Source: Moniliella sp. 'wahieum'
Lineage: Eukaryota
DNA: 64,000 bases
Assembly: GCA_003971905.1 (NCBI GenBank)
Contig: RSEE01000001.1
Span: 620,001-684,000 of the forward strand
Direction: 5' to 3'
This document shows positions 1,152 to 62,783 of this stretch, in pieces. Made by a program: the position numbers and the translations under genes. Each line of letters opens with the position of its first letter. Position 1 is the first letter of the stretch. The notes beneath the pieces were generated by a model. The model had not been told where the DNA came from. It ran no database searches and worked only from the letters and a program-made list of their open reading frames with translations.

Positions 1152-2029
1152 TTTTTTTGTGCTGTTGGCCATTGCTACCGTGGAACGGAGCACTCTTCGA
1201 CGTGCGAGAGAGCAGTGGCCGGTGACAGTTGCTTTGGCCGCGAGCGGGCAAGACCTAACGTACAGGTAGAGCGAATGGGGGAGCGGGGGTAGGAAGACAG
1301 GATGCGCAAGAGAAACAGCGTGTACAGCGTTGACTGTTTGCGTACACAGGCCTTCCGCTTCTGGGCTGCGGCAGCAGCCTACAGGCAAAAACTATCTGTC
1401 CCACCTTGTGCGTCCCCCGAAAGCTGGCCTAGACAAGCTATAATATAGCGAGGACGATAAACGATGCAGGACTTCTGGTACTGAGTCTCAGTATCCTCAG
1501 GCCTGAGGAGGTATCACACGATATATCACGAGGCCGAGGGCAGGTGATGAGGCGGTGAGGCCACGCTCGGCAGGCGGAGGAAGATGCTCAGCGGCTCAGC
1601 TGCCAGCACCTCTGTTTCAAGCATGGGACCCTGCCAGGCACCAGCCCTGCGGCCAAATGGATCGGCATGTGCCGGCACAGGGCAGTGCTCCTGCGCCAGG
1701 CCAGTACTGATGCATGATGCATGATGAGGCTCCTAGCAAGCTAGCAGGGGGCCGGTGTACGTCACTTGTGGCGTGGACCCCCGTGCGTCGCTGCGCACAC
1801 TGCTCCTGTGCTACCACAGCCCTTGGTGCGACCCGCTGCCTTCGCATTCGCACACCCTGGCTCAGCGCTCGCTCAGCCGGAGCGTACAACTCAACCGACC
1901 ACCTGAAATCGCAGCCCGTCCGCAGTCGCCACTGCCATCACCACCACTACATACACACCATCACCATCCTCTCAATTCCCCCCGAACAACTACCACCTCC
2001 ACAGCACCACAACTTCTGCCAGCGGCTGG

Positions 2030-5000
2030 ATGCCCCTTCCCCCCAGCGCTCCTGCCGCCGCCATCGCTGCCATCTTGGCCAGCGCGCCCCCCCACGTGGC
2101 CATGAACACTGGCGTCGAGACGGTTGACGCTGATGATTCCTGTGACCCCACTTTACCAGCTCAGTCATCTCCTCTGTCCTACAATCAGACGTGGCAATTG
2201 ATATCGGCTTAGATGACCAACCCGACGTTGACGATGTTGACGCCGACAACAGCAATAGCGGCATCTACCCCCTCCCTCCCGACGCCTTCACTGGGGAATC
2301 CGAACCAGACGCGTTCGATTACTCGGATGGGGAGGAAGAATACGAGTACGATTTTGATGACCAACCTGAAGATCCACAAGAACAGATTTGGCCATATGTC
2401 CCTCCTCAAGCCTACGGCGCCACGGGACCAGTACCCTATCCCGCGGAGCACGGCGAGGCACTACTGGCTGATGCTCTGGCTGCTGGATGGCCTCTACCCG
2501 AAGGAATGACCGCCCCTGACCAATGGGCTCTTGGAGCGCCCGTCGTTCCGGGAGTCACTCAGCTCAGTCTTCCGTGCGAGTTGGCCGCCGAGGCCTCCCT
2601 GATCTTACACAAAGCCCAGACTGAAGCATTCGATAATACTCGCCGGCAGCGTGCTCATCGCCATCACTTCTCCATTCCGGACGTCTATGTCACTCCCGAT
2701 CCGGAGGAAGGGGGGGATCCAATTGTCGAGGTCGCTGTTCCACCCCAGAAACGCCGCTCTATGGTTTTCAGCCAGCTCTCGTCCGTCGATTTTGCATGTG
2801 AGCCCCCCTTCCCTAACCAGCCCGAGATGGACGCTCCTTCGGCCTTAGCCGCTCTCGCCCATGACTCAGGGGCTCACATGGGACCTGTGCATGATGAGCA
2901 TGACCAACAAGATCACCAATACTCTGGGACTGCATTCGATCTAAATTCATTTGAGGGCGACTGGGATTCCACCCCCAGCCAAAGCTTGGAGTCTTTTCCC
3001 CAAGCAGATGACCATTGGGTTGCTCCGTTGCGCGATCTACCCCGTCAGAAGAGCACCCTATTGACCTCGAAGAACTACAACGAGAGGGAAGGTCAACGCA
3101 CTCCTCGCCCCCAAGACTTCGTTCCGCAAGCCCTTTCTCAAAGCGTTACCCCGACTGCCATCTCGACTGCAACTGTATTGGCCTCTTGGGACCAGTCTGG
3201 TGGTGTTATTCAGCCCGCTGCGCCGGCAGAAGCCACCCCTACCCACGTTGAGTCCAACCCGCTTTGGACGGATCCTGAAGAGCTCAAGGCGAACGACTCT
3301 TCGGCTAATTTTGCCCTTGTCCCCTCTCGCCGTGCGCCCCCGCCCCCCCCCCCCTCGCCGCCTTCATCAATGGAGGAGCATGGCTCGTCGTACGACCCCA
3401 TCCGACCCTTCCATCATGCTGAACCAACCCAGCTCCCCAGTCCAAGCAATTCATGGTCTGATTTGGCCCTCTAACATCCAACATTGAAGAGGAGGTCGTC
3501 TCTGTTGCAGACCCTGACCCTGAATATGGTACTTCCACTGCGAGGAATGTGCCGCTAATGGAGGCCAAGTGTTCGTCGCTACACTGCCAGTCGACGGAAG
3601 AACAACCGCAAGCGCATCCGGCGTCCACTTCGACATCCTTTAGCTCCCTCACCGAAGTGTGGGCTACCCCGCAAGCACACCTGTTGCCTCCCCGCCCGAC
3701 TCGCCCAACGTTCAGCCTTTGAGGCAGGATACCGCTCCTCCCACTTGGAACCTGGTGGAACCGCCCCCATCCGTGGTGCCCTCTCTGGACGAACGAAAGA
3801 ATTTGGCAGACACGTGGACCAGTTGCTTCAGAGCAGGTACGTTATCTTTGTCACGTATAAGGCTACAGTCTTAACCGTGTCCTAGCACCAGGCGCTAACC
3901 TCCCTATGTAAGGCATCTTCCCCCCCGGGCAAGGCGCCATCCTCCCCAGATGAAAGGATCCTTCCCTGGACAGGTCGCAGTACGCGGAAGGATTGTTATC
4001 TTTGCAGATTGGGTCAGAGCCAGTGCAATCATCCCCCACCATCCATCAACCCACCGTGCCGGATGCCATTCTTCCCCCACTCCCGGAGATGCACATCAAA
4101 CCCACATCGAGCCGAGCGATGTCATTGGGACCCACTTTGACGCAGTCTTCCAGTTCCAAGGAGGAAACTTCCTCCAAGTCAACTCACACCCCTCCCCCAG
4201 CCCAGGAGCCCTTGCACTCGGGCAGTGAGTCCAAGCCGTAATACTTGCACTAGCAGACGATGAGGAGGATTGTATCAACAAACTGGGCCCGTTTCACCAC
4301 CGCTTCCTGCTATCGAGGTGAGGCGGGATATGTCAACCCCCTCCAAAAGTGCTGGAAGGCCAGACCCCATCCTTTCAACTGAACCCTCGACCTCGACCGC
4401 TCCCTCAAGCCGATCAGTCCCTCCGACCCGATGCGCCCTTCGGAAGCTTCCGTCGTGCGCCCCGGCCGCAACAACTGGACCTCGCTTTTCAGCTTCCGAA
4501 GCAAAATGGGAAACCTGCCCCCGCCACGCCACCGTCGCATGCTATGCGCACGGCCCTACCCACACTGCAATCCACCCCGACACGCTCTCCGTCGTCACCC
4601 CGCTTCCCGGCCAGAAATCCGGTTTCTTTCTGCCACTCTACCCTCCCTGCCCCTACCCCGGGCCCGGCTGCGCAGTGGTACAACTACACCGCTTCCTGAG
4701 CCCCATCACCCCCAGACGTCTTCGCTTGGGAATGAGTCATTGCCCAGCTTGCCTTCGCTCAACTTGACCGGACAGGGCTCCATGACCGATTTCTTGGGTA
4801 CACTAAGTCTCTCCACCATGTCACTGGCCTCGCTCGCCTCGCCCCCGGCTGCTGACTCGCAGGAACCTAAGCTGGAACCCGTTATGCCCACCCCTCTAGC
4901 TTTTGCCTCCGTCCCAGGGCTTAAGGCGGGTGGTGCGACGCAAGTTTCTCAGTCTCCCTCTTCTGTTGCCCCGGGCAGGCCTACCAACCCCCCGGTCATC

Positions 5001-6889: not shown

Positions 6890-7422
6890 ACCTTGCTCTC
6901 CACCCTTTTGCTCCTCACGTGAAACCCAACCTGCTTATCTCTGCTCTGGCTCGGGTACCGTCCGTCCCGTTTGACCGTGCTCTGCTGTATTGGTGCATGT
7001 GCCAAGCCTTGCTAATGGTCTTTGGTCACCTTGTACGCCTTGAATTCTTGTCGTTTGCTATAGCTTGCCCACCTCAGTACGCCCAGTCCTCGCAATTGGT
7101 ACCTATCGTTGTTACTTTTTAGCATCGCCGCAGCATATGGATGCGCTGCAAAGGGACGAATAGAGTGCCATCGTTGTGTAGCTTGCTCTCCCCCACTTGT
7201 GCTTGGGCCAGGGGACCATAATGCATAAGACCATGCATAAGGCCTAAAGGCTCAAGGTATAGAGCAGTGTCAATATTAGGTGAAGAGGAAGCGTGAAGCC
7301 AAGCTTGAAGCTTACAATTCAAGGAGGATCAGCACGATCAGCACGATCATCGCGATCGACCAGTAGGGTTGCACTGAGAGCGACAGGGTTAGATAAGGGT
7401 ATGACCAAGCGTATGCTCGTCC

Positions 7423-9404
7423 ATGAAGCTTGAACTTCAAGCCAACTGCCCTTCACGGCGCTGGCACCATCTTGGCCCCCCACGCAGAAGGATGCGCGCA
7501 TTGGTCCGCCTGAGCCAGGATCTGGCCTTATCCTGCTTCTTGCCCCATGTGCTTCCGTCCTTGCCCACGCGGAGCAGGTTGTTCTCGATACACGCAAGAC
7601 CCCTCCTGACGGTCCCGGCAGGATCCGCGGGTTTGAGCTCAATACCCCTCCCCCTCTCGATGCTGGCAAAAAACTATTTCGTCAATGTCGGCACCAGCTC
7701 TTCGACCACTCTTTTGGCCAGTACAGGACATGCAGAGTCCACGCCCTGGTCACCCTCGTTGGTGGAAGCCTGCGGACCGCCCATCACTGGCGGGCAGTGG
7801 AACTGGAGATGACCGGACGAGTACGTTGGGCCCATGAACGTGTGGTATTACAACCTAGAGAAGGTCTTGAAGCACTGATCACAGATCCTTCCTTTTATTG
7901 CGTTGTACAGGTGCCGGGCGACAGTACGATCGTCTTGGTTCGGTTTTGGTTCGGGGGGGTGAGCTGTGGCGCACCGACAATTCCGAACCTACACCTGCCG
8001 GGTCGTGTGGAACGCACGCAAGGATGTGAGCAAATACTTTGCTCTCTGGGCGCAGCAGGGGACCGTCCTCTTTGATTATGAAAACTATCTAAGTGCGGTG
8101 GATAATGCCCCGCTCAACGTGACACTGGACATTGCTGTTCACGTTCCCTGGACAGAGGAAGTATGAGGGTCCCACCCCTCTGGCCCAGCGTACGGCTGAG
8201 CTGATCCTCCCCTTATCCACAACTATACTACGGACAAGTCCATGTTTTCCGTCGGTGGTGAGGGAAACCCACCATCTGGCAATTCAAGTATCACGTTGCC
8301 TCCGCACACGAGCTCGGCACTGGTAGAGGTTTACGCCAGTGGAACGTCGCAAGAGGAAGAATGGTACACCTCGGTCCCGGATGATGTGTACCCCACCCTA
8401 TCCCAGTCCACGACGCAGAACCTGGAATTGTATCCCCCGCGGTCCGGTACGGGAAATCCAAGTCCGGGTGGACGATCGGCTGGCGGGATTTGTCCAGCCT
8501 TATCCGGTGATCTTTACTGGAGGAATTGCACCCGGAATGTGGAGGCCGATGGTCTCCTTTGGCGCGTTTGACCAGCCCACCTACATCTTAGATCTGACCC
8601 CCTTTCTCCCTCTCCTGTTGGATGGACAGCAGCACACTGTATCCCTCGCCGTCGTTTCAGGGAGAAGAACGGGACGATTGACTCGTCATGGTTTCTGAGT
8701 GGAAACATCCAGGTCCGCTTGGACCCGTCGGGAAAGCCCACCAAGGGATCCCTGATAACCTACGAAGCCGACATCCTCCCTCACACGTCTCTCACTACCA
8801 CTTCCCGCGTAACGGGCAACTCGTCTATTCTATCCATTCTCCAGAGCCGAGTCCCACGCACGCTAAAAGTCGAAAGTATCCTGCACTTGGGCTCACAGGC
8901 GAAGCCCAAGTGGATCAAATGGCACCAATCCGCCACCACCTTTGCCAATTGCACCGTCGTTGGATCAGGCCAGTTAGCTCAGATGAACATTGTCAACAGT
9001 CGCGGTCGATCTTTCTCCACCCATGGCCCCGGCCCTTTTTGGAGTATGCGTGGAACTTGCCCCTCAACGTGTCCAGTCGCGGAGACGGCACCCCGTTCGA
9101 AGCATGGGTCCAACGCGGCTATCACGCTCACCTCGCCCTTCCCACTGGGGAATTTGGCGTTCCCCTTTGGGCTCGCACGGATTCCGTCCAATCCTCCCAG
9201 GGTGAATTCAACCTCTCTACAATTGGTCGACTAGCTTCTTCAAAGGGAACTGCGTCTCAGCAATACGCGTACGCCGACGCTGCGGGCAACACATTCCAAC
9301 GTTCCACCCAAGTCTGGTCGGCCAATGCCACCACGGGAGTCATCCAGGACAATGTGGGTGGCACGCTTGCCGTGTACGCACCCTCGATTCTGCCTCCTCC
9401 GTAA
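7423..9404 (+). CDS. Peptide-N4-(N-acetyl-beta-glucosaminyl)asparagine amidase A (PNGase A) family
   Basis: Motifs QYDRLG, EEEWYTSVP, GPVREIQVRVD..LAG...PYPVIFTGGI.P..WRP..SFGAFD.P.Y.LDLTPFLPLLLDG..H, WFLSGNI. Probable intron ~7821-7910; several frameshifts. Confidence 0.85.
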
Positions 9405-10658
9405 TCATTCACTTCTTCGTCTTTCTTGTGGCATCATCCATATGCTGGTATACCACACCGTCAGAGGAAATCGGAACGGGACGGCAGATGTGATGTTGAA
9501 AGGGGGGTGGCATCGACAGCAAGGATGGGGGGGCATGTTAGAAACATGCGAGGGAGCTGGGGTTGATTCATCCCTTTTTTGGAGAATCGATGGTAAATGA
9601 GCTTTGGTAGAGGGCGAGCGAGGCCTGCGTATGCTTCGCTGGTCGATCTCTTGCCCCTCTTCCGCCGTGATTCCTTGGTCCCCAATCCATCCCCCAAAGC
9701 CATTTCATCTTGACGCACGCTGGACAAGGCGCACCCACCAATATCATTCCCTCATCGTTCGTGCCGGTATTGCGGGCTCCGAAGCGGGATTTTCGGTACA
9801 GGCGTTCGATGCTATCGCCTCTCTATACAACTAAGTAAGCTCCCGCTCACAGCTGACGCGGTCAAGCTGTTCAAAGACCGTCTTGCCAATTTCTGCGGCG
9901 CCAGCCAAATCCCATATGGCGCCTTGCGCTCGACCTTGACCTGAGCCCTCCAGGCAGCCTATTAGGGGGGTGATAAACGAACGCACGCGCTTCCTTGCCT
10001 ACCCGGCGGCCGACGAGGCACAGCTGACAACTTGATGGCTTTGTCGAGTACCACACGATCGACTACGCGAACGCTATTGAGACCATGTGAGCTATGTGAG
10101 CAACACGCTTGATGGCTTGATGCCACCTGTTTGGCGTACTCTCGATTCGAGCATTCGGATGGTAAGGAGGCGGCGTAACTGCAACAGCGAGCCGTGGGCA
10201 ACTAAACTAGACTGGGTTTGAGGCTGCTTGGAGGCTAATGTGGGTCGCACGAGATCACTGCCGTGTGGGGAAGGCACCAGGTCAGTGTGTCCAGACCCTG
10301 CTCGCTCCTCTCAGCCGCAGCCGCGGCGGATGCGGAACAGCGCCCCCAAGCCTGCTGCTGTCCAACGCAACATCGACCCCTCCGCTCGCTCGCTCGTCTC
10401 GCTCACAAACTACAAGGGCGAAGAGGCTCTTTGCTCTGGCGCCTTGGAGCTCCCACAAAGAGATCCAGCAATCTCCAACGTCCATCGTACGTCCATCGCG
10501 CCCAACAGCCATGCGTCATGACGCGTGACGCGAGTAAGGGCAGATGCTCTTCGCTGCACCACTGTACTAGTCACTCCAGCCGTTCCTCTTTTCCTTTTCT
10601 CTGCCACCATCGCCGCCCCTCATCGCCCACTAAAGCTCCAATCCACTAACATCGAAGC

Positions 10659-24181: not shown

Positions 24182-26457
24182 GGGGATGGGTGGTGGGGGG
24201 TGAGTACTGAGTACCGGCACTCGGCCTCGACCGACAAACTGAGCAGCGAGGCGAGCGAGGCGAAGGGGCGCGGCCGGGCGCTGCCTGGCGCTGCCGCCTG
24301 GCCGGCAGCCAGGAACACCGGATCAGCGGTCGCCCGTCGGAGCACAAACGAAGCAGCACAGCAGCCGACGTGGCTTGTGCGTGCCTGGCACGCGCCGACA
24401 CTGGCCCTGTGCGCGGCCAGGGCGCTGCCGTGCGTGCGCGCCCTGGTGCTTGGGCCTGCTAAGCGCTGCTCCGCCCTGTTATGCGCCTGCTGGACTCAGT
24501 CGCCTGACGCTCGCATGGCTGTCCGCCCGGCGCCAGATGGCTGTGCTTCCGCTCGCTTCAGCGCCCCATTCTGTCCCCAAGAGCCTCCGCTTCGGTCCTC
24601 CCCATCGCCTCCATCGCCATGCCTGCGCGTGTCCTTCGCCTCGGCCCCGTCCATCCGCACCGCCCCAACCTGAGCCCTTGAAATTTGAGCCCCCCCACCG
24701 ACCACCGACAGCCACTGTCACATGTCACAGGCCACATGTCACACTGACACGTCGCATGTGGCATGTCACATGTCACACCTTGACGCGCACCCTTTTTATA
24801 CCTTTGTTGCCTCTTGCCATTAACCATTGCGGTGCAATATGGGCCCTTTTTTCGCGTCTCTCGCTCAGATCCCCTCCCCTTAACGTTTAACCCTTATGCA
24901 TGGTGCCTCGCCATGCACCATGCCCCTTGCCCTGTCGAAGATCTGCTACCCAGACGATTCGTGTATATCGTCCAAGCCGAGAGAGCATACAGGCCGATGG
25001 CTCCATTTGCGCAAACAAACTCTCTCTCCTCGGCGCAGAGGCTCAGCGTCCTCTCAGCGTCTCCGCGTCAGCCACAATAATGCACCAGTTTCGCATGGAA
25101 TTGCAAGTCACATCGTGCAACCAAGTATCTTCCTTTGAGGCTCTAATAACAAGCAAGCATCCTCACCCCCCAGCATCCTCTTCCCGTCCCAGCTTAATCC
25201 CGTATACATATACTGTCATACGAGTTCTAGGCATTCCAGTTATATTATGCGCAGCACTCAGCCTGCGCGCTCAGCTAAGCATCAACATCCACAATAGAAT
25301 TCGTACAAGACGCTACAGACCTCGGCCTCATCGTTGCCGGCCTCTTGAAAGCCACACGTCATGCTTCCCTACACCGGCCTTCTGAAGAGACGCTATAGCA
25401 CTATAGGGCACCGCGCTGGCTACGCGCCTGTGCTTTCCTTTATGCTCATGTGTTCGCTTTCCCCCAGAGTATCTTCATCACCACAATGGCGGCACGACCA
25501 GTGCTTCTTCCACTCATACTCCGTCAACCTCCGTACTTGTCGACAACTCCCTAACTCCTTCATTCTGGTAATCATAGTGATATAACGGTAAAGCGACGTT
25601 ACCCCTGAGCTCCTGGCCCCCTTCAGCGCTCTTGGCGAACAGCGCAAGCTGCTCCAGGTCCACAGACAGAGGGTCTGAGCAGCATCGTTTGCACGAGGAC
25701 CGCCGCCCAAACTTCGACATCTGTTCCTGCCCCTACATCCCCTCGGTTTCGGAATCTGAAACCGGACAAATCCTGCTTGGCTCCGATTGACCCGTCCAAC
25801 TTTTTCTGTCCCAAAACTGAAGAAAGAGGGGGTGTCCTACATCGGGGCTCGCCCCATGATATTGGCAATCGCATTTGTGAAAGGATCTCTTCCTCCCACC
25901 TCACACGCCTATACTCCCGAGCAGGGGTTCTGAAGATGGACATATAGGGTGCGCGTACAGCTCAAATTATTCGTCCAAAATGGTTTATACCCCGGCCCCT
26001 AACTTCAACCCCGAAGAGAATCCTAGTGAGAACACTCTATGGCAGACCTCCCCCAACGTGAAGTATACACGACTGTGCATAGTAAAAGGACAGATTGCGA
26101 ATAGAAACAAGACAAAAACAAGCAGCAAAAGTCGAAACGGATACGGTCGACAACAAATTTATCCCTCCAAAAAGCCACCTCTTTCCCCGCGTACAACTCG
26201 TCCCTCTCCCGCTTCTCCCTTTTGCTTGCCGCGCAATGTGTAGTGCATGTAACAACATCGCAGCGATGGCAAGGTGCTAATAGGGCCGCGCCGAGTTGGG
26301 AGGGAGGTGCACGGTCTGGGGTATCGACCAAGAGAGAAGAGGAGAAGGCGGTGACGGGGGGGGGGGACGTAGGCGGAGGAGGGTGCAACAGGTGAGGAGT
26401 GGTTGAAAGATGGGGGGGAATAGGGGACAGGAAGGGTAAGGACAGGTTTAGGCATAG

Positions 26458-28110
26458 CTACAATACGTGGCCACGGAAGCGGGTGGGGTTGGAGGTAGAA
26501 TTGGAACTGGAGATGGACGTGGAAGGGAGGCAACTTGCGTTTGAGTTGGGGTCAAGCGGTGCGACCCCTACGGGCCCTGGAGGGTGTGCGACGGCTGGAG
26601 GCGCTGGAGGTGCGAGGGGCGCCAGGAGGGGGTGCCGGTGGTACACATGGCGGTTGGTAACAGAGGAAACATGGGGATGGGGTGTGTGCATATTGTGAGC
26701 ATTGTGAAGAGTGAGTTGCTCTTGTAGACTCAAGGTGGGCAGGCACGGGCACGCGTCCTCTCCAGGGGATTGGTGACGCTGCAGCGCATCAAGGTGGGCG
26801 AATTCGGTGCCACACAATGCGCACGTGTGAGGACGGACGTTGAGATGCAGCGTTTCGTGTCGACGCTTGTCGTGGGCACGGGCAAAGCTGCGCTTGCAAA
26901 ACCGGCACGCATAGGGTCGTTCGTCCGTGTGCGAACGCAAGTGGCCCCGCAGATTCAAAGCACGGGTAAAAGACGATTCACACCCGGGCACCGGACATTT
27001 GAACGGCGCCGCCCCTTTCCGTCGTGAAGCCGAGGCGGCCTTGGTCTTGGTCGTGGTAACTTGCAGGTGGTGGATAGGTCGAGAAAGAAGGCCGAACGTG
27101 AGCTCGCCTTCGATCGCTGGCGAGCGTCGGACGACCGCGAGACCGAGCCAGTGCGGGAGGCTGAGGAGGAAGAGACGAACCGCGCCTCCGACCCGTCCGG
27201 GCTGGGAGCAAGAGTGGTGGGACTGGTCGAGAGTGAGCCCTGAGGCTGGCGAGGAGGGTAGAACGATAGACAGTTGCGGTGGTTCATCCAAAAGGCTTGG
27301 AACACTGCTACTCGTAGCCAGACTGGCGCCACTGAGGGCACTCTGTATGCTCCGCGGCGATGTGTGCAATGAGGTTTGAGACCTCGTCCGTTGAGGCACA
27401 CGCGGCACGATTTGGCTCTCCCACCCGTCCCGCGAGGGCGACCAGGGTGGCTGCGAAGCACCTTGGGTTACAGGCAGGATTGCCGCCCCAGCAGGGTCAA
27501 AATTCAACGTGAGCTGGTCCAGGGTTTGGGGAAGTGAGACGGGCTCGGCCTTGACGGGGGGGTGTGACGTGGAAAGAGCTTGTGGGTGTGCGAGTACATC
27601 GGGGCTAGGTTGGGGGTGTGGGAGGTGATGCGGGTAAGAATGTGGCTGTGTTGATGCCAGCGTACGCGAAGGTGCCACCACGGGCTGCAGTTGTGAATGA
27701 GGCAGGATGGAGGTCGGGTTAGGGCTGGCATGGCCGAGGCCGAGAAAGCGTTTGAAGTGGCCGTAGGAATCGGAGGGGATCTCCGTGGAAGAAGTAAGAG
27801 AGAGAGGACGCTGGTACTCGGTGAATTCGGTGGGGCGATGAGGCTTGTTGGAGTTCAAAGCAGAGGCTGCGCAGGCTGCAGGGGCTGGGGCAGAATTAGG
27901 CAGACTGACGAAGGAGGGGGTGGATACAGGGTTAAGACCAAGGGGGGTGCTCAGCGGTCCGGATAGCAGTGCGGGTGGAGACATTGGCACGGTCCGATCA
28001 AACGATAGCGGGACGACAAGTGGCGGGATAGACCCCGCTGGCCCCATTAGGGAGGAGGAGGAGGCTGTGCCCGTTGAGCTGGAGACGCCAAGGCTGTGGC
28101 TCGACATCAT
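26458..28110 (-). CDS. Crz1-like C2H2 zinc-finger transcription factor
   Basis: Three fingers FKCPVPGCESSFTRALNLRGHLRSHTDERPYACRFCKRSFARAHDKRRHETLH...CALCGTEFAHLDALQRH, a Ser/Pro-rich N-terminus and PQLSIV resembling a PxIxIT motif. The true stop may be further left. Confidence 0.85.
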   Translation of the reverse strand: MMSSHSLGVSSSTGTASSSSLMGPAGSIPPLVVPLSFDRTVPMSPPALLSGPLSTPLGLNPVSTPSFVSLPNSAPAPAACAASALNSNKPHRPTEFTEYQRPLSLTSSTEIPSDSYGHFKRFLGLGHASPNPTSILPHSQLQPVVAPSRTLASTQPHSYPHHLPHPQPSPDVLAHPQALSTSHPPVKAEPVSLPQTLDQLTLNFDPAGAAILPVTQGASQPPWSPSRDGWESQIVPRVPQRTRSQTSLHTSPRSIQSALSGASLATSSSVPSLLDEPPQLSIVLPSSPASGLTLDQSHHSCSQPGRVGGAVRLFLLSLPHWLGLAVVRRSPAIEGELTFGLLSRPIHHLQVTTTKTKAASASRRKGAAPFKCPVPGCESSFTRALNLRGHLRSHTDERPYACRFCKRSFARAHDKRRHETLHLNVRPHTCALCGTEFAHLDALQRHQSPGEDACPCLPTLSLQEQLTLHNAHNMHTPHPHVSSVTNRHVYHRHPLLAPLAPPAPPAVAHPPGPVGVAPLDPNSNASCLPSTSISSSNSTSNPTRFRGHVL

Positions 28111-28379
28111 GGTGGATAAGAGGATACAGGCTGAGGGGGGGGGGTGAAGGCTGGAATGGGGCGGAGAAACCAGGATGTCGGATGCAAGGGCAGCGAAGAA
28201 AGGGGGTCAGGGCTGGTGGCCAGGCAGGATTGATACCATGCAGTATTTCTGGCGAAGTAAGATGCTACAAGAAGGCGAAAAAGCAATGGTTGTTGCAGAT
28301 GGTTTCTGGTCCATGACCTGTGGGGCCTGGGGACTATTCTCAGGCGCCACAGAGGGGACGCTGTGAGCACAGGAGAGCT

Positions 28380-32160: not shown

Positions 32161-33545
32161 CTAGTCGGCAAAATCCTCCGGATGCTCGAAGTAGTAGTAC
32201 GACACAGCCTCCACGTTCTTCCCACAGAGCAAGTACACTTCCACGGCCTTGTCCTCCGGTACACCCAGATCGACATTGATTGTACCTCCCCCCGCTCCGC
32301 ATCCGAAAGGGATTCGATAGGCACAGATTCCGGTTCCGCTTCCGCCCCCGCACGACCCCCAAGGGCCGTCAAGAGACTCAGCACCTGCGCAGGTTACGTT
32401 GCAGCGCCTCAGCCAACATGGGTTCTGCTGGTTTACAGCACGCACCAATGGCTCCAGCGCAGATGGGTTCTCCTCTGCTAGCGTTTGTAGCTGACTTAAC
32501 AACGCAGGGTTGGCCAAGTCCAGAACCTCGTTCCCTTCGCCATCCAGCTGGCCCCCGTAGAACCCTCGTCCCCCCCTTGCTGTCGGTGCCGCACCGCCTC
32601 GGGCTGCTGCCGCCGCCGCCTCAAACAAATTTCCTGCCCCTGGTGGGGCCACAGGAGGGTCGGCAGGGGCAGTAGCCTCTCCACTGGCTGGACTCGTCGC
32701 TTCTTCCGAAGCAGGCGGCGGCGCGTAACTGGTGCAGGTGCAGCAGGGGGGGGCTGCTCCAGTCCCAAGCCAGCGGGAATGCCCGTCATCAGATACTCAA
32801 CCGCACGATCAGGGGTTGTACGACGCTCGCATTGCTCGTTCCACTTCAGACCGAGGGAAGCCCATCTCGACCATTTGGTCCATGGCCGTGCGAAGTGCGG
32901 CTCCAGCCAGGAACGCGTTGTTCGATAGGCCATCGCCACTCGTCGGGGCAGAAGTAGAGAGTGTGGAAGCAGGTGCAGGCTCACTGGGTGCCTGCACCGA
33001 AGCGGGAGGAGGGGCCGAGGAAGCTTCGACGGCAGTGGAAGACGACTTGGGCTCCTGCGCAGGCTCCTGTGGGGTTCCGTCGCGGCCGGCTCCTTCGGCT
33101 CTGGTGTGGGCGTCTGGGTCGATGCTTCCTTGGGATTCGGCGTCGAAGATTCCTTGGGAGTCGGGTAGACGCTTCCTTGAGTGGCTCCGAGGATGGGGCC
33201 TGGGCATCAGGCGTTGGGGCCGGAGCAGAGGTGGAGGCAACAGATTTAGCTGGTTTGGGCTTCGTCTTGGAAACCATGCTCACGAGGAAATCCTTCTCCT
33301 TGATGTGGCATGTATCAAGGGTCTGGTCATTGGCCAAAATCTTTCCCGCGAAAATGATCTTTTGCTGCTCCACCGCATGGCCTTTGGCCGCCAAAATCTT
33401 CTCCTTGACGGTAAGGATCTGTTGTGGGAGAGAGTCAGCCTCCCATCCTCGCATCTCAGATAAAAGGGGGAATATATACCGTATCGCTGGGATTCACGTC
33501 GAGGGTATAGCTTCCCCCCGTCAAAGCCTTGATCGTCACTTGCAT
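32161..33545 (-). CDS. RAD23: UV excision repair / proteasome shuttle Rad23
   Basis: UBL (MQVTIK...QQKIIFAGKILAND), UBA1 (MVEMGFPRSEVERAMRASYN.PDRAVEYLMTGIP), XPC-binding (ENPSALEPL....QQNP), UBA2 (LGVPEDKAVEVYLLCGKNVE). Intron ~33419-33479. Confidence 0.95.
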
Positions 33546-34083
33546 CCTGGTCGTCGTCCTCAAGCTTGAACCTCAAGTTGGTGGCGGGTGGTCGTGCAAG
33601 CCCAGCTCAGCCCAGCCGCCCCATGCCCCACGCCCAGGTGGTGCCACTAATTCCGCCCCGCCCCTTACTCACTAGTCACTCGGCTCCTACCGCCTTGGCG
33701 CGCCGTTCCGCTGGCCACGCGTCGCTGGAATCGAATTACCCCGGCCCTCTCATTAATATTTGAACAGTGCAATCGAGCCAGCAGCCCTCGTCCCAAGCTT
33801 TGTTCAAAAAGCCACTTGCTGTGACATGTGACGCTGTGACATGTGACAGACCACTTCAACCACTTCAACCACTTCAACCACTTCAACCTTCAGAGCTTCA
33901 GCCTGAGAGTCCCAAATATCTCCCTCCATCACATTTGTTAAAGTGCCCACACCGCTTTTCTTGATCGCGGGCGTGCTCCAGACCATTTTGAAAGGAAACG
34001 CGAGAATCATCAAAGGGCAGACGTCCGTGTGGCAAGCCTGTGGGTAGATCTCGAGACCGTGCTGGTGACAAAAAAGAAGAAGA

Positions 34084-34188: not shown

Positions 34189-35757
34189 CAATTGCAATGA
34201 GGGAAGCATTTTGGGGTGGGAATGTGAAGAGGCAGAGAGGAAGAGAAAGGGGGGCATATGAGGTATACGTTTTACTATCCAGACAGGGACGTATGTTCGT
34301 ATTGTCTCTGCGCACGAACCGCAAACTCAAGGGATACCGCCAGCTGAACGGAGGAGTCTCAATCCGGTTGTTAGCGATGCAGTGACCCGCACTCGCAGGC
34401 CCTTGATCCCCCCCTGTATATAACAGTCTGTGTGTGCTATACGCATCCACATATACTGTTTTGGGGCTTTGCTCTTTGCTTCATCAGGCATACTCAGGTA
34501 TACTCAACGTACACATCGCCGACACTCAATTTCCTGATTTCAGCGTCTCCTTCTCACTGTGAGATTCTCCCTTGTCATGCCTTTACCTTCTTGCTGAGGG
34601 CGGAGAATCCGCCCTTTACTTTGAGCCCTTTTCGTGTTTGACTGTTCCTGTTCCCAACTGCGCGAGGGAACCTTTCCGTACTTGATCTGTGCTCCATTTG
34701 AACCGCATTCGCCTCGATTACTTCTTTTTTCTACGTTGTATGTTGATTTGTTAAGTTCTTGTCTGTATAGCGTTTGTTCTATATGTTCTTTCCGCTAGCG
34801 GATCATTTTGTAACTTCTCCTTGCGAATCCATCATTGACGCCCAGCAACACATGCATTACTCCCTAGTTCACCAGAAGTCCCACCGGCCTGCTTCAGCTA
34901 TCACTTTTCTTCGCCTTGCCTTGGCCGCGACTGGCTAGGTTATTTCGACTAGGCACATCTTTTGCCGTCAATCTCTTCCCGCTTTCAGTCTCCTCTGTAC
35001 GGATCCCGCGGCCATCATCCTACAAGAGTTGTGGTCAAATCCTGTCTTTACCTGCCCGACAACCTTACGGCCAACCTTTCAAGGTTCTGGCCCTACAGGC
35101 ACGCTAGTCCTGCTCGTTCCGGTTCATACACAACTTTGCCATGGGAGCCGACGCCCCAATTGAGAAGTCTGACCTCATCTCTAGCTCCATTCGGATCCTC
35201 CACAATTGCGTTCAAGCTCGATTAAACATGAATGGACCTCCTCCTTCAAGGGAAAGCGCCCGTAATAAACCGTGGGTTGGGCTCCAATTCGCGCCCCCCG
35301 CCCATGACAGGACACAGACTGACTTTTTGGAGCATCACCAACCTCCAGGGATTCGTCATCTTTTAGACCAAAACAGACGCGCACATTTCAGTTTTCTGGC
35401 TCAGCAGTCGTTGATGAACGCAAAAGACTGAGGAGGCGATCTTTCTTGAGTTACTCTACTTGTCTCTTGTTTGCATCCTCACCCTGCCGTGTTGTGGGCT
35501 ATACAATATATCGCGCTACGTTCTCGGTAGGGCGTGAGAACCCGAACGACGGTCCTGGACACCTTATCTCCCAAAGACAATGGTTGTGGGGCTCTTGGCC
35601 TAGTCTTTCCCCAATTTGCATGACTCTTTTCGAGCGGACGACATTCATTCAGGCTCCGTGGGATGTTGCCTCTAATGTAAAGGAGGGGAAAACTTGAAGA
35701 GCCACAAAACAGTAGAGTGGAGGGGGGAGGGCTCGTAATGTAGCGACAAGAACGCAA

Positions 35758-35843
35758 TCTCCGATAGTTTAGTGGCTATGACACGTCCCTGTCATTGTGA
35801 CAGTCGTGCGGACGAGACCCGGGTTCGATTCCCGGTCGGAGAG
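35758..35843 (+). tRNA. tRNA-Asp(GTC) with 14-nt intron (35795-35808)
   Basis: Acceptor TCTCCGA/TCGGAGA, anticodon arm CGTCC-CT-GTC-A^C-GGACG, T-arm CCGGG-TTCGATT-CCCGG. The intron contains TGACAG, complementary to the anticodon loop. Confidence 0.95.
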
Positions 35844-37051
35844 TGTTTTGCCAAGCGGTGGAATGGAATGTCTCCGTGGTTCCTTTTTCAGCTGCAACAT
35901 GCCCAACGCCTTTCACTAGGCCCAACCACGATGAGGTCATCCCTTGGGGCTGGGTGTCCTACTGTGTTTGCTTGCACGCCAACTCAAACTTCACTGCGAA
36001 CGGGGTCAGCGCGCAGCCAGGGTCCGCGCTGTGCGCTGGCTAGAGTGAAGCTTGAAGCCTGTCGCCCTGAGCCTGAGCCTGAGGCCCCATGCCCCAGCAC
36101 TGGGTATCGCTCTCGGTATCGTGTATCGCAGCATCCAACACTAGTCACTAGTAACTAGTAACTAGTAACTAGTCACTGCTCCTCTGCCGAGTGCTCCCGC
36201 AGCATCGACGATCGGCGCTCGTAGGATCGGTGTCGGTCCAACCCTACTGGCATACGGTGAGTATGGGCCTCATCGACATCGATCATCTTGGGCTGCGCTC
36301 CCCGCACACGTCGATGGAGCGCCACCGGTCGCTGCCAGGCTGCCGCTGTCCTCCTGCTGGGCTAATCTGGGAGCGCGCCTTGGTCTCCCCGCTGTTGGCC
36401 GTGGTGCAGGCAGTACATGGGTGTGACGCGAGCGTTCGCTGGTTGAGCCTGAGATTCGGAGAGCCTGAGCAGAGTGCCGGATTTCAGCTTTCAGCTTTCC
36501 GTTAATTTCACCCTAAAAGCTGAGGCTCAGTGCCTCCGCATCCATCACCTCGTCGCTGCTGGCGGGGTGTCTGGTGCAGTGCCAGGCCAAGTAGCCGGCA
36601 CAGGCCCAGTGTGGCCAGCAGCTAGCCGGCGACAGAGCCAGTGCTGGGCGGACTGATCGATGGGTGCGGAGGATAGAGGACGCGGGCGGAGGACGAGCGA
36701 TCGATGAGCAGGACGTGTGCCGAGTGCACTGGTGCACTAGTGACTAAGGCATGGCACATGTGACATGTGGCGAGCGTGGTTCTTGGTGCTGTGCTGTGCT
36801 GTGCTGGGTGGCGCGGTGCTGCGCTGGGCCGTGTCGTGGAGGTGCTGAAGCGCTGGAGCTGCGTTCCAGGATGCACTCGCCTCGCCGCCGCAGCTCGCAG
36901 CAGCAGACAAGCGAACCCACACAGGCGCAACGCCGCTTGCATGCTGCCTCATCCACCTCATCGATCATCCCGCCGTGTTTCCTGCCACCGCCACCGCCAC
37001 TGTCACCACCCCCCATCTCCATCTTCCCCCCCACCCTTCCCCCCGACGACG

Positions 37052-46198: not shown

Positions 46199-46437
46199 GA
46201 GTGGGGTGGTAGGACGGAAAGGCAGAGGAGTCGACGAGAGGAGAAAGAGAGGAAGTGATGGGCGGTACTTGAGGCGCACGGAGATGGACTGTGTAATCTG
46301 TAGTGTTGGCACCGACAGTAGGCAGTGTAAGATATTAGTACAGCCACACTGCGTATACAGCGATCTTGAAGCTTGATCGGATGACCTTTACTTTCGTTGT
46401 TGAATGGGTGTGGTTTTCACCGCTCCAAGCGTTGGAG

Positions 46438-48353
46438 AGATAGGTGGGGCGCAGCGGTAAAAGTTATATGGCCACAGCGGAGCTGCTCTTGGCGATGGAG
46501 CGCATCGATCTGTTGGTTGGAGATTGCAAAGGGTAACTGATGAAACTGGTGCGTGAGGCGGTGTGTTGAGGCAGAAGGCCCGTTGGCGGAGACCCTGCAC
46601 GCCGGATTATTATGCTGTGACGATGTCACGCGTTATCGGGCTATCAACAAAGCTACATTCCGGCACTGGAAGGAGACACAGTGGTGGTGTGCGCCCGCTC
46701 GATAAGCGTGTGCGAAACATGTGCCGCTCAGCGTTCACTCCTGCCCCTGCCCAATAATGCCGAACTCCGTTCCTTATCCACGAACGACCCAGTGACCGGT
46801 GACTGGCGTGACACAGTGACATCTGACATGTGACGGGTGATTGGTGGTCGATGATGCATGCGTGACTGTGCCGTCTCAGACTTGTCGCGCACCCCCGTCT
46901 CTATTGCGTTGTTTGCAAAAAGGCACGTTCTCGGTATAGATGTCGGGCAACGGTCAGGCTCAGGCCGAAGGCCTAATCGATAATCTGGGTTTCGCTCTGC
47001 CTTGCCGGTGCCTTGCCAGGCCCTGCCTCATTTGTTTTGGACGCCATTACGAATCAACACGAAAAAGCTTCTTCTTTCCTCCTCATTTATTGCATTACAT
47101 CTCAGAGCATGTAATCTAATCAAACACCACAGCACCCATCCACCAAAAGGGCTTTGCTGCGTTCGGTGGGGGCAGGTGGGGGTGTACAAGGGCGTACACG
47201 GTATACGGTAAGGAGGAGATAAGGAAAACGAACGATCAATAGTATGGTTTGAGATGAGTGGCTTTTACAGGTAAGCGCTATTAAGCTTCAAGTTTTTGAA
47301 GCTTGCGAAGCCAGCACGGCATCATAGAAACTGCCATGGTAAAATGACAAAAAGATGTGGCCGGAGGCATCGTGACGGTCATTATAATCGACAGGGCGAT
47401 ACGACAACAAAGGCGAGGGACGAGAGAACTCAGAACCCCCGGGCGTCTGCTTCGTTTGCACCCACAATCTCTCGCCCAGCCATAAAAATTCACACAGTCG
47501 CAGTCCTATAAACGTCCAAAACGACATCTGAGCAAGGTCAGGGAACTTCGGTCCAACAACATCTCCGTCGTGGAAAGGGGCTCGTTTCTTGAAGCCACAG
47601 ATTGCCAAAAGACGAGACCACGCGTCTCTGCCCTGTGCCTCTGAAAAAGGCAATATACACGGCGCGAGCTTGTGAGATACACATTCTCAATCATCAATCA
47701 ACTTCCATAATGTGCACAATGACCTCTTCCTTTGACACTCTCCTGTGCGCGATAAGCAAGACATCAATGCTTCGTCCACCACAACACTGTGGGACCGGGG
47801 GGTGGGGTTGCAAAATCGCACGTTCGCATGGTAGAGAGGTGTCGAGTTTATTTGGGCCTCGCCACACCGAGAATAAGACCCGAAATGGTCCCGGCGGCTA
47901 CGCTCTACCAGTGCCAAGGCGCCGATCCCCATACTGCCTGCTGCATATAGCTACGTTGCACAACCCACAACGTCTGGCCCCACCCAGCGAAGTGCGGCTT
48001 GTGAGGCGGTCTGAGGGTCTGAGGATCTGAGGCATGAAAAGCTGCTGACCAATGCAGCCCAAAAACCCCGCCGTACTTCGAGACAGAACGGCAAAATAAA
48101 CGGACCCTGCCAGTATCTGCCAGTACTCAGCGCACTCCGCCCCTGCGCTACTACAGAGGGCACCATTTCTAATCGTGACCAGTTTTCCTTTGATGCGGCC
48201 GGCGGGTGCCCGTCACATGTCACACGTCACATTGCCACTGGTTTTAAATTCGGCACGCGATTGTGTGACAGAGACTGGTGGGGGATTGTTACTTGAAGCT
48301 TGATTAATGATTGATTGCCTTGGTCCAGCGGGTGGCGCGTTTATCGTTTATCT
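46438..48353. promoter_or_regulatory. Divergent NRT2/nitrite reductase promoter with candidate GATA-factor (AreA/Nit2) sites
   Basis: HGATAR at 46438, 46633, 46641, 46700, 46978, 47217, 47750, 48341 and 48348. The count is near chance expectation; support comes from local pairing of sites and known nitrogen regulation. Confidence 0.4.
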
Positions 48354-48835
48354 CCCGAGATCTGAGAGCCAGCGCCCTGCACGTCCTGAACTCCACAGGA
48401 ACCGCACTGTCAGCGTCAGTCGCAGCTCGCTACAGGCATCTCTGCTCTCACATCTCACATCTCACATCTCAAATTCCACCGGCAGCGCCAACCAGACCTG
48501 TCACCGAATCCTGCGATCAGTGCTCCCTCGGCCTTATTGAAACGCAGGTTACATCAAGCGAACGCCCCCTTGTCGCTGGTGTAAGAGTAGCCACCACACT
48601 GATATCATCCAAATGGGCGTATCCCCTGTGCCAATGCTGGCCAGTACACAGCATTTTCGGGCTCCTAACTTGGTGTGGCCGATGATCGTTCCATATCTCC
48701 GTCCAAGTGTTGGCTCGAATTACTAACACACGCGGTTATTTCTCCCACCGCAGCCCACCACCTGCCCCCTTTTCAGTACTTTGACCCCAGTTTCTCAACC
48801 TTCCCCCTCCTCCACCAACTGTACACCCCCAAGCG

Positions 48836-54599: not shown

Positions 54600-55808
54600 G
54601 ATGGGAGACAGTTAGGTGGTGTAGAGGGTGAGAGGTAGGAGAGAGGAGAGGAGGGTGTGTGGGTGTGGGTGGTGAGGATCAAGACAGGCCAAGAAAAGAA
54701 GAGTTTATATACCTATGCGGGGGACTGCTTCTTGGAGGAGGATTGGCCAGGATTCTTCTCTCTGGGGCCGGTGGTGCTGTGCCAGTGCTGACGGCGGGCA
54801 CTGATGCTGATGGCATCTGCCAATGCCGGGCTGACGCGCTGACAGGCTGACGGGCTGACGGGCTGACGGTGTGTCTCCATTGATGCATTGATGTGGGGCT
54901 GGACGTGGAACACATTGAACGTTGAATGTGTTGAACGTTGAAGACGTCGAAGTTTGAAGAGTGGCCCGTGGAAGGGGGTTAATGTAGCGCGTATTGGCGC
55001 TTATATTATTAGCGCTCTCAGCCATCTCATCATCGACATCATCCGTCATCAATTGCATCAATGCCCATGCATCAACATACGTTCAACGTTCAACGTTCAA
55101 CGTGTTCAACCATCTTCGTTCTCGGCTAGCGTAGAGTAGGCGACAACAGGCGGGAGAGGCGAAGCGCTTGGTGGATGCGGTCGTGGATATTGAGTTACTG
55201 AGTTCGGTAGTGAATATGGAATGCGGCCTAGCTGACGCGTTGCTTCGAGGCATGGCTGACGCGCTGACGTCAGTTGCGTACTCTACCCCGCCATCAGCGC
55301 TGACCATCATGCATCACCCATCAGCTCCATCAGCGCATCAGCCATCGGCGTTGGCTGGCTTGGGCGCCCCGGTAGCTCCAGCACAAGGCCAGTGTGTCAG
55401 CCGTCATCCTGTATCGTCGCCCCGAGTTGCTTGGTTGCTTGGGCGGGTATCTATCGATCATCGGCACTCGGCAAACACTGATAGTGGCTACCACAGTGGA
55501 AGACGCAAGGAGGCCATTGCACTTTCATGATACCCGTCGTTGGTAGTACGCTGATAGCGTTGATAGATGACCGGTGACCGTAGCACACCCTCTGTGGGCG
55601 GAGGCGGGACAAGCGGAACACAAAGCAACGCGGGCCGCGGAAGGCCGGCGTCCAGCCTCGTTCCGCCTCGCCTCCTCCCCCTGGAACCCCACCATCTCCC
55701 TCGACGCACAACGTTGACGCCCAACGTACTCAAACCCAACCCTCGCCACCAGGCTTCCGGTCGCCCCTCTCCGCTCTCGCCCCGCCATCTCAGTAGGCTG
55801 CCTGGAAG

Positions 55809-56157
55809 ATGTCCGAGGCTGCCCTGCAGGCATACCTCATCGTCTTCAAAACCGACGCTCCGGCCTCGGCCATTGCGGACGCGCTGCAATCCACCGCCTC
55901 CCAGGGCGGCGAGGTGATTCGAACGATCGATTCGGGCTACCTACGCGGCTTTGCCGCTCGCCTGACTGCCGCCCAGGCTCAGGCCATGACCCAAGCTACC
56001 ACGGCTGGTGCCCATCGCTACATGTACGTCTTGTCTTGTTTTTTCCCCTTGGCTTGTCCTTGGCTGATGCAGGTTGCATGCTGGTCCGATGCGCTAAACG
56101 GATTCTGGGGGCCTTAGTGCGTACATTGAGCCCGATCAGGACATGGCAATCCAGTAA
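55809..56157 (+). CDS. Stand-alone peptidase inhibitor I9 (Pbi2/POIA1-like)
   Basis: YLIVFK.......I......QGGEV...I...LRGFAA.L; removing intron 56024-56117 restores the typical end IAYIEPDQDMAIQ*. Confidence 0.88.
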
Positions 56158-56180
56158 TCCAATGCACCTCTGTATCCATA

Positions 56181-56489
56181 CCATCCCCATCCCCATTCCC
56201 ATCCCATCCCCATCCCCATCCCATCCCCATCCCCATCCCCATCCCCATCCCCATCCCCATCCCCATCCCCATCCCCATCCCCATCCCCATCCCCATCCCC
56301 TCCCCATCCCCATCCCTCCCCATCCCCATCCCCATCCCCATCCCCATCCCCATCCCCATCCCCATCCCCATCCCCATCCCCATCCCCATCCCATCCCCAT
56401 CCCCATCCCCATCCCCATCCCCATCCCCATCCCCATCCCCATCCCCTCCCCATCCCATCCCCATCCCCATCCCCATCCCCATCCCCATC
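56181..56489. repeat. (CCCCAT)n hexanucleotide microsatellite, ~50 units
   Basis: Read directly from the sequence, with few 1-nt interruptions. Confidence 0.98.
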
Positions 56490-57301
56490 TAGAGTTCAAG
56501 GTGTTATGCGCGGCCCCGGACTGGAGCCCGACTCCCACAAGTTAGGGGTCCCGTTACCCTGGAGGAGGGAGATCACTCCCGATTGATCAAGCCTGAACCT
56601 ATTAGCAGATCCGAATGGAGCCAGAGACGAGATGGAGTCTTTTATCTGGGCTGCGGTCCGCGGGGCAAGGTTGTGACTGCACCGAACGAGCAAGACTAGC
56701 GTGCCTGTAGCCTCCGAACCTAAGCGTCAACGCCATTGGCCCTCCGAAATGAGATCTGAGAAAAGACTAACAAGTGTATACGGAACGTTCCTCACCCTCC
56801 GCTGGGAACGGGACCAGTCAACCAAAAAGAAATGCCCTAAGCAATGAGCGGTTCTCCACCCTCAGCCAGGAATGAGAAGAGCATGAGGAGAGAGAGAGCC
56901 CCGCAACGAAGACGAGACGCGCAGATTAGGAAACAGAAACTAACGCCCGGAATCCGACGCTCAACCAAGAGCCCTCATGTGTCCAGATGTCCCTTGCGTC
57001 TACGACCAAAGCCCAACTAATTCGAGGCCATACAACCATCGGTACGGGCCCAAAAAGCCAATGCACACAGATCTCTTTGGCTGTACAAAAGACATTCTAG
57101 ATCGAGGGGAACTTGCTCTGCTGAGACGAATATAGTATGGAACCTTAAAAAGTCTGTGGCTTTCGATAATCTCAGCTAATGATCCCCGTCACAAGGCAAT
57201 GCCTTCAGTCAGATCTCAGAGCTATCGCTCTCTCGGCTATCAATCCACATCCCAACCATATGCCGTCATGTACGACCCCCCCGCCTAACCCAGCTATCCA
57301 A

Positions 57302-61883: not shown

Positions 61884-62783
61884 GGCTATGCCGCCGCGCC
61901 AGAAGAGGGACGGAGGGGAGGAGAGGAGAGGAGAGGAGGTGGCAGGGAAGAGGAGGGTGGAGAGGAGGAGGCAGAAGTGGAGGAGCGCCGAGGGAGCGTG
62001 GCCGGTGGGGCGACAGCGACGGCCGCGGCGAAGCGTGACTGGAGGGTGATGCCTGAAACTGAGATCGACACGGCAGGACTCTGCGTCTCCTCCGCCCCAC
62101 CGCCCCCGGCGTTTGCTTCAGACTGCCGTGGTGCGTGCCGCTGGCATGCATGACAGCTGAGCGCTGACATGTCACAGGACGTGTGGCATGGCGCCACTAC
62201 GGCGTGCGCAGTAGGGTTGCGTTCGCCCTGGTCCGTCTGCAAGATTCCCGGCAGTCTGATTGCCACTCACACGGCACACTTGCCGCTAGGAGCACCACAA
62301 CCGGCACTCCCACCACCTCCCTCCCCGACCTGTGGTTCAGACCCACATCACAACTCTCAAAGTAGTGGGAGCAATGTATTGCTGGAATGACCTTAACGAT
62401 CCCCGTGACAGGAATGAATATACGCTGCTGTGGATTATACGCTGCTGAGTGAACAGCGTGCGTCAAAAAGGCAATAGACCCATAGGTTGCTTGGTTCCTC
62501 TCAGCGTATATGTTCATGCGAAAAGGGAGAAGAAACGCAGAGGGGGCAAGAAAGAAGGGGGAGCGACAGAGCGCAGAGGGAAGGATATACAGAAGAGAAT
62601 GTCTGTTGGGGATGAAGAACCCCATTATGAAAGAATGTGGAAAGTAATCCGAAAAGAGAGGTAATGAGGAGACGCTAACTGGCGACCCACATCCCAAAAC
62701 CCGTAACCAAAAACCAATAACGGTAGAGCACACGGACAGCATTTTGCAAGATACGAAGATGAGGAGAGCGATATGGCTCTAAG

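Follow-up and report, generated by a model that had tools for sequence, protein, structure and literature searches.

RAG coding ends are formed by hairpins that lie exactly at the border and are opened about 2 nt from the tip, yielding 4-nt self-complementary 3′ overhangs and 2-nt palindromic additions; transposition by RAG and Transib gives 5-bp duplications, and hAT elements prefer targets of the form nTnnnnAn. An opened hairpin is marked by a spacer-less palindrome built from bases of the flank, which passages of PMC4561436, PMC5873905, and PMC5499845 describe for Ac/Ds, RAG, Transib, and MULE. Footprints of Ac/Ds keep both target duplicates together with palindromic P-nucleotides that arise via flank hairpins (passages of PMC4561436 and PMC5873905), and their palindromes center on the complement of the base adjoining the element (a passage of PMC5873905); flank hairpins of the Transib type are described in a passage of PMC5499845. 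According to passages of PMC4561436, the PIF/Harbinger elements mPing/Pong use a target in which the middle base is free, TTA and TAA being natural and TCA and TGA workable, they duplicate 3 bp only and excise precisely, and a Tc1/mariner footprint consists of TA plus bases of the element end, i.e., a stereotyped small insertion. Fungal cut-and-paste transposons reported to make 7-bp duplications include hAT7 in Pucciniales and Kyakuja in Agaricomycotina; the latter ends in CA..TG and lacks inverted repeats (passages of PMC12730594). Here, we have analyzed a stretch of 64 kb from the fungus Moniliella sp. 'wahieum' (contig RSEE01000001.1, positions 620,001 to 684,000; the whole stretch is called the window), in which palindromic 7-bp units built on T-N-A recur that we read as probable excision footprints of a DNA transposon.

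The window consists of intron-rich fungal DNA with 58% G+C and gave Pfam matches to Rot1, Med12, FKS1, ribosomal protein S26e, nitrite reductase, and a kinase of the Byr2/STE11 type. An earlier note on this DNA had proposed that palindromic hexamers starting with A are enriched and phase-locked at 7 bp, and the counts bore this out: such hexamers followed each other at a lag of exactly 7 in 31 cases (22 pairs of the same hexamer, nine of different hexamers), whereas 40 order-3 Markov simulations gave a mean of 0.43 and a maximum of 2. A further 11 pairs were found at lag 14. The signal was not shared by palindromes with other terminal bases, as C-, G-, and T-start hexamers formed two, zero, and zero pairs at lag 7. 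Altogether, 24 chains of two to five hexamers were present, and they contained 12 different hexamers; at least eleven had been claimed. Tandem runs of period 7 and at least 14 nt numbered 38, and 20 dinucleotide shuffles gave 4.0; an A..T palindrome was contained in 25 of these runs and TNA in 30, and periods 8 to 12 did not show a comparable excess. The 7-bp palindromic pattern in the non-coding DNA is real and very strong.

The motif can be described more sharply as TNA, a 4-bp palindrome, and a second TNA with identical N, T-N-A being the constant part. This unit occurred 69 times as compared to 2.0 expected occurrences, and the form with a different N in the second TNA 13 times as compared to 4.0. 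Pairs of TNA separated by a spacer of 2 or 6 remained at chance level; a weak excess was observed with spacers of 3 (15 vs. 6.0) and 5 (7 vs. 1.9). No signal was obtained when TNA was replaced by ANT, CNG, GNC, TNT, or GNA. A comparison of all 64 trinucleotides revealed that only TGA (36), TCA (17), TTA (10), and TAA (6) stand out, the remaining 60 yielding 77 units together (58 expected). The 1821 TGA/TCA sites carried 53 units and the 654 TTA/TAA sites 16, i.e., per-site use is about equal; hence, N is free. The palindromic cores were diverse as well: 14 of the 16 possible 4-bp palindromes were present with a fairly even spread, and none occurred more than 10 times among the 69 units. Perfect palindromes outnumbered those with a single broken pair (69 vs. 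28). About 5% of the non-coding TNA sites bear a unit (59 units on 1150 sites).

As a control, 80 FKS1-bearing fungal loci from metagenomes (805 kb; at most 71% identity over the N-terminal segment of FKS1) were analyzed. They contained 48 units at an expected number of 48.1; the process that forms the units is therefore specific to this lineage and not general to fungal promoters. Full-text literature searches retrieved no description of TNA-centered 7-bp palindromic arrays or footprints in fungi.

Most units (48 of 69) are isolated, and their flanks reveal the anatomy of the motif. In 39 of these 48, the repeat at lag 7 runs past TNA by 2 nt or more, only to the right in 19, only to the left in 10, and in both directions in 10; the same extension was found in 12 of the 48 units of the control loci. 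The minimal form is TNAxy, followed by the reverse complement of xy and a second TNAxy, or the mirror image of this arrangement. Among 59 repeats TNAxy..TNAxy at lag 7, the middle is the reverse complement of xy in 47 (about 1 in 16 expected by chance), and the inverted flank dinucleotide occupies the middle in 32 of the 41 mirror forms. Other 5-mers at lag 7 showed an inverted dinucleotide in the middle in 16 of 256 cases and in the mirror form in 8 of 256, which is chance level. The palindrome is thus templated by the dinucleotide adjoining TNA: its 4 bp are two flank bases plus their reverse complement, and it is even-centered. The earlier statements that the geometry is shared and the sequence is not, and that a single transcription factor motif or plain slippage is unlikely, were correct.

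Units with additional bases settle the size of the duplicated target. In 10 of 12 lag-8 forms, the extra base, located between the P-nucleotides and the second TNA, is identical to the one preceding the first TNA (chance 1/4), and in lag-9 forms both extra bases match the two bases before the first TNA in four of six (chance 1/16); the one form with three extra bases did not match. The complete form, a 7-nt repeat centered on TNA with two P-nucleotides between the copies, is present at 29082, 55028, 55047, and 55095, and no 8-nt repeat with two P-nucleotides was found in the window. The target duplication is 7 bp, nnTNAnn. The unit had been described before as a hexamer plus one spacer base; this description is better replaced by a 7-bp target duplication plus two P-nucleotides.

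Models were then scored by the outer bases kept per copy and the P-nucleotides added per side. Loss of two bases with two P-nucleotides was found in 47 and 32 cases (0.15 and 0.3 expected), loss of one with two P-nucleotides in five and five (0.05 and 0), loss of none with two P-nucleotides in three and one (0.05 and 0), and loss of one without P-nucleotides in six and six (0.6 and 0.45). The excess was confined to combinations that fit a 7-bp duplication. Plain 7-bp duplications centered on TNA with a non-palindromic junction occurred four times (0.18 expected). Products that keep both overhangs, i.e., two adjacent 4-bp palindromes, were absent, and TNATNA, the product expected when both are lost, was not raised (39 vs. 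40.5). In a mixed array at 28756, the left units match the dinucleotide of the left flank and the right unit matches that of the right flank.

The units are unevenly distributed. Gene orientations were roughly read from open reading frames (ORFs) and Pfam hits, and on this basis 60 of the 69 same-N units, in 39 clusters, lie in promoter-bearing gaps (14.2 kb), two in putative convergent gaps (4.6 kb), one in a gap of unclear type (1.5 kb), and six in the remaining 43.7 kb, which are mostly covered by ORFs. At the level of clusters, the contrast between promoter-bearing and convergent gaps gave a binomial p = 0.028 when the unit-rich region 28207-32163 was left out. The ten clusters named earlier as lying upstream of genes all contain the motif. 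The proposal that it is rare in coding DNA and in convergent gaps agrees with the low counts there, and the 5′ bias is suggestive, since gene orientations were only roughly read. An insertion of 7 bp shifts the reading frame; rarity in coding DNA is thus expected under any mutational origin.

From the observed anatomy and its statistics we infer hairpin chemistry, an element, and an insertion preference: the motifs are probably excision footprints of a cut-and-paste DNA transposon. Such an element would insert at T-N-A with a 7-bp staggered cut and thereby create the target-site duplication nnTNAnn. Upon excision, the transposase would leave both flanks as covalently closed hairpins that end exactly at the outer edge of the duplicates. 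Nicking of the hairpins 2 nt from the tip would give 4-nt self-complementary 3′ overhangs, each made up of two flank bases and two P-nucleotides. The two ends, being of equal length, would be joined in register, each overhang being ligated to the recessed 5′ terminus of the opposite flank, and the joined duplex would have a fixed length, one strand carrying the palindrome of the right-flank dinucleotide and the other strand that of the left-flank dinucleotide. Replication would separate the strands, so that one daughter receives the right-flank and the other the left-flank palindrome; either way, two copies of TNA would result at a spacing of 7 bp, enclosing a 4-bp palindrome. This scheme would account for the fixed 7-bp spacing, the occurrence of both mirror types, and the constant N; that products with both overhangs kept or both lost are not raised fits the joining of two 4-nt overhangs in register.

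The 8- and 9-bp-spaced forms would result if one hairpin is opened nearer to the tip. Each footprint doubles the target, and both copies of TNA would be new targets; repeated hits and probably later slippage would build the phase-locked arrays, in which N is constant and the hexamers may vary. The excess in promoter gaps would stem from a preference for open 5′ regions and from selection against 7-bp insertions in coding DNA. Among the three origins considered in the earlier note, the footprint of a hairpin-opening process fits the palindrome templated by the flank and the 7-bp repeat centered on TNA.

The Ac/Ds footprints of plants and yeasts resemble the units of the window in that both duplicates are carried together with P-nucleotides derived from the flank. 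The duplication, however, is 8 bp in Ac/Ds and 7 bp here, so that the canonical hAT length is not found, and the hAT target differs from the core nnTNAnn of the window. Centering differs as well: the palindromes of the window are even, the 4-bp spacer being strongly raised (69 vs. 2.0) and the odd 3-bp spacer only slightly (15 vs. 6.0). This odd class consists mostly of one 6-bp repeat, and in one worked case its center base is not the complement described for Ac/Ds. Finally, Ac/Ds outcomes are varied, whereas those in the window are far more uniform.

With RAG and Transib, the units share even-centered P-nucleotides of the kind that hairpins formed exactly at the border would leave. The 5-bp duplication of these systems was not found, as the outer two bases are also duplicated in the window when they are untrimmed; furthermore, neither a RAG-like gene nor signal sequences were seen in the window, and the host is a fungus. 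hAT7 and Kyakuja share the 7-bp duplication with the units and likewise occur in fungi; the passages of PMC12730594 give neither target consensus nor footprints, and no copy of either was found in the window.

A parallel with PIF/Harbinger had been drawn before. The central T-N-A target is indeed shared, and only TGA, TCA, TTA, and TAA are enriched in the window; the size of the duplication differs, since the repeat reaches 2 nt beyond TNA in both directions and TNATNA is at chance level (39 vs. 40.5), and a footprint is the rule in the window. With Tc1/mariner, the units have a stereotyped small insertion at the target in common; there, however, the inserted bases come from the element ends and are constant per family, whereas those of the window copy the local flank and use 14 of 16 cores. 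If our reading is right, the combination of nnTNAnn, a 7-bp duplication, and 2-nt even P-nucleotides matches no characterized superfamily.

Several observations weigh against excision footprints. A scan for inverted ends flanked by duplicates of 7 bp (nnTNAnn) or 3 bp (TNA) found no transposon in the window; it returned one 7-bp and two 3-bp candidates, which were array-internal or due to chance. Pfam scans of selected ORF translations (39 out of 108 that are 150 aa or longer, 52 out of 155 that are 70 aa or longer in chosen regions, and 18 more) did not detect a transposase family, and in the unit-rich 4-kb region no Pfam family was found at E up to 0.1 among 13 translations of 76-137 aa taken from 49 ORFs of 50 aa or longer. 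Known transposons leave far less uniform footprints: Ac/Ds produced 28 different footprints in 128 events in Candida albicans (a passage of PMC5873905), and two intact duplicates were left in only eight of 94 rice excisions (a passage of PMC4423477). Deletions are invisible to the scans used; the uniformity is therefore partly a detection bias. The even centering, unlike that of Ac/Ds, and the very high density, with about 5% of non-coding TNA sites occupied and 33 units in one 4-kb region, also weigh against this reading. Furthermore, eight of the 38 period-7 runs lack TNA, two exact duplications (18906 and 47687) are off-center relative to TNA, and a flank extension is missing from nine of the 48 isolated units. 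The units were also read from the window of one strain and not as observed gains.

The explanation that survives best beside excision footprints invokes the same chemistry without a resident element. A transposase-like nuclease, encoded by the host or domesticated, or a transposase whose attacks are abortive would make 7-bp staggered breaks at TNA in open chromatin, and the ends would be hairpinned, opened, and rejoined. The resulting units would have an identical anatomy, and the lack of an element in the window, the very high density, and the uniform outcome would all fit. However, two full 7-bp target copies with palindromes derived from hairpins are explained most simply if something sat between them, and a staggered break alone would give a filled-in duplication without P-nucleotides, a product that is rare here (four cases). 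No nuclease of such a kind is known to us, and we regard this explanation as unlikely.

A further reading, to which the remaining origins suggested earlier can be assigned, takes the arrays to be selected promoter elements, read by a dimeric or polymeric factor at TNA every 7 bp or acting as hairpin or cruciform signals; selection would maintain the palindromes. The concentration of units in promoter-bearing gaps, the surplus of perfect palindromes over those with one broken pair (69 vs. 28), and the folding of long arrays as single strands (−7 to −17 kcal/mol) speak for such a role. Yet 48 of the 69 units are single, 14 of 16 cores are used fairly evenly with no conserved core shared between sites, and copying of the core from the dinucleotide adjoining TNA is not what selection for binding would lead one to expect. 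Furthermore, the 805 kb from other fungi lack the feature, and the mean single-strand folding energy of 30-mers around units is only modestly lower, by 1.3 kcal/mol, than that of other non-coding 30-mers (−3.0 vs. −1.75 kcal/mol). Neither a structural signal nor a polymeric reader of TNA is needed to explain the origin of the units, and we consider selection as their source improbable; some long arrays could have acquired a secondary regulatory use.

Still less probable is an origin of the units as hairpin-prone 7-bp microsatellites through ordinary replication slippage or template switching. It would account for the excess of period-7 runs (38 vs. 4.0); the same hexamer is repeated in 22 of the 31 pairs, and arrays of identical units can grow in this way. 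A tandem duplication, however, gives at least seven matches at lag 7, whereas most isolated units show exactly five plus two inverted bases; the strict requirement for TNA, the mixed arrays, and the 8- and 9-bp forms that retain outer target bases are left unexplained, and no comparable excess is seen at periods 8 to 12. Slippage can make an array longer, but it cannot start one.

An element with a 5-bp duplication (TNAnn) and P-nucleotides that are always one-sided would produce the commonest form, a 5-nt repeat plus two inverted bases, and elements of the Transib/RAG type have 5-bp duplications. Flank hairpins are also on record for them in a passage of PMC5499845. This model requires both an asymmetric target and asymmetric processing, and it does not predict that extra bases match those before TNA (10 of 12 and four of six); we find it highly improbable. 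A sequencing or assembly artefact is barely credible: the units are known from the assembly sequence alone, but their strict logic is tied to local flanks, they avoid coding DNA, they form at least 39 separate clusters, and we know of no sequencing-error mode that produces such a pattern.

Five models were considered and rejected. Fillers derived from element ends, of the Tc1/mariner kind, are ruled out by the occurrence of 14 of 16 cores. A 3-bp duplication combined with a hairpin on TNA predicts T-N-A-T-N′-A palindromes, which are not raised, and hexamers starting with T gave no lag signal. Plain 7-bp duplication of a palindromic target does not agree with isolated units most of which match on one side only, and a canonical hAT footprint with a net gain of 7 predicts an A-N-T junction that was found zero times (1.1 expected). 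For a hairpin or cruciform signal, the difference in folding was only modest.

If the motifs are excision footprints, about one in 20 non-coding TNA sites bears a recognizable transposon scar, and one 4-kb upstream region holds more than 30; the process looks to have rewritten much of the promoter DNA of this lineage. Promoters would then have been reshaped, in an unusually clear and quantifiable manner, by small palindromes left upon departure and not by insertions. With this signature, the element could be sought, and the opening of hairpins and the joining of ends could be studied in fungi; in this lineage it would also mark, simply and genome-wide, where transposons were active in the past and where chromatin is open. 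More tentatively, and in our estimation rather doubtfully, an undescribed hairpin-forming transposase with a 7-bp stagger on T-N-A may still be highly active, or may have been domesticated, in a single lineage of fungi; nucleosome-free promoters would then receive palindromic 7-bp units continuously at a rate near that of point mutation per site, and hexamers of the ACGCGT, ACGT-core, and ATGCAT types would feed new regulatory sites.

The largest accumulation of units is located at 28398-31800, upstream of a C2H2 zinc-finger gene (26458-28206, minus strand). Of the 69 same-N units, 33 fall into the gap 28207-32163, where arrays comprise as many as three hexamers and mixed arrays occur as well, and the full form at 29082-29097 is a 7-nt direct repeat centered on TCA with two P-nucleotides between the copies and a spacing of 9 bp. 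The divergent promoter at 54830-55577, between an SDR gene (minus strand) and ORF 55718-56545, harbors 7-, 8-, and 9-bp-spaced forms, including the three other full 7-nt repeats with two P-nucleotides (55028, 55047, and 55095).

Toward the start of the window, a cluster upstream of ORF 2146-3474 (1497-1730) comprises a chain of three hexamers at 1703 and same-N units at 1708 and 1715. Directly upstream of ORF 7434-8075, the cluster at 7219-7433 contains units at 7219, 7238, and 7424 and hexamer pairs at 7233 and 7301. A single unit (10519-10532) precedes the Rot1 ORF by about 100 bp, and the units at 24201, 24679, 24718, 24766, and 24880 (24201-24893) occupy a putative divergent promoter and the DNA next to it. 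The cluster 33669-33850 is made up of the units at 33669, 33822, and 33837; a tandem repeat of a 9-bp unit in four copies is located at 33850-33890 in a promoter gap. The cluster at 36046-36180, 600-700 bp upstream of FKS1, holds the longest array, five copies of ACTAGT with the spacers c, a, a, and a, and an ACATGT pair (36756-36768) is found at the start of the first FKS1 ORF piece.

In the divergent promoter of the nitrate genes, units are present on the NRT2-like side (46793-46983) and on the nitrite-reductase side (48213-48310). The GTGACA/TGTCAC-rich footprint arrays at 46808-46837 and 48209-48238 are an imperfect inverted pair, 83% complementary over 30 nt, whose members lie 1371 bp from each other and flank this nitrate-assimilation promoter. 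A 7-bp unit centered on TCA occurs in three copies with a non-palindromic junction at 48446-48472, in a promoter gap, and it looks like intact target duplicates without P-nucleotides. Two single units at 56750 and 57209 (56750-57218), in a putative convergent gap, are the only ones in gaps of this type, and the STE11/Byr2-like ORF (minus strand) is preceded by two units (62158-62174) at a distance of about 40 bp.

A recurrent 6-bp-spaced form, TNA plus GCC (or its complement) plus TNA, was observed at 11195, 29288, 36068-36082, 36444, 39124, and 46954. It fits the class of footprints with one base lost from one copy and no P-nucleotides gained; alternatively, it could be a separate hexamer repeat.

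The window also contains a dispersed repeat of about 250 bp (821-1071 and 30613-30862), the copies of which are 82% identical and have ends resembling those of a long terminal repeat (LTR), TGTTG...CAACA. The first copy ends 9 bp before a tRNA-Thr gene (1080-1151), and the second sits within the footprint-rich 4-kb region; the repeat may be the solo LTR of a tRNA-associated retrotransposon. Upstream of the first copy, a 20-bp unit is present in four tandem copies (620-699). An Rfam scan of the window detected three tRNA genes only. The sequence at 35758-35843 was called tRNA-SeC (anticodon tca) by ARAGORN and was aligned to ordinary tRNA by Rfam at 50.9 bits, the anticodon loop carrying an insertion of 16 nt. 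A tRNA that bears an intron, with the anticodon read as GTC, is more likely here than a selenocysteine tRNA. A long array with a period of 11-12 bp and a high content of CCCATC-like units (56184-56518) lies in the 3′ portion of ORF 55718-56545, and an inverted dispersed repeat of about 105 bp with 78.5% identity is found at 35093-35197 and 56608-56710.

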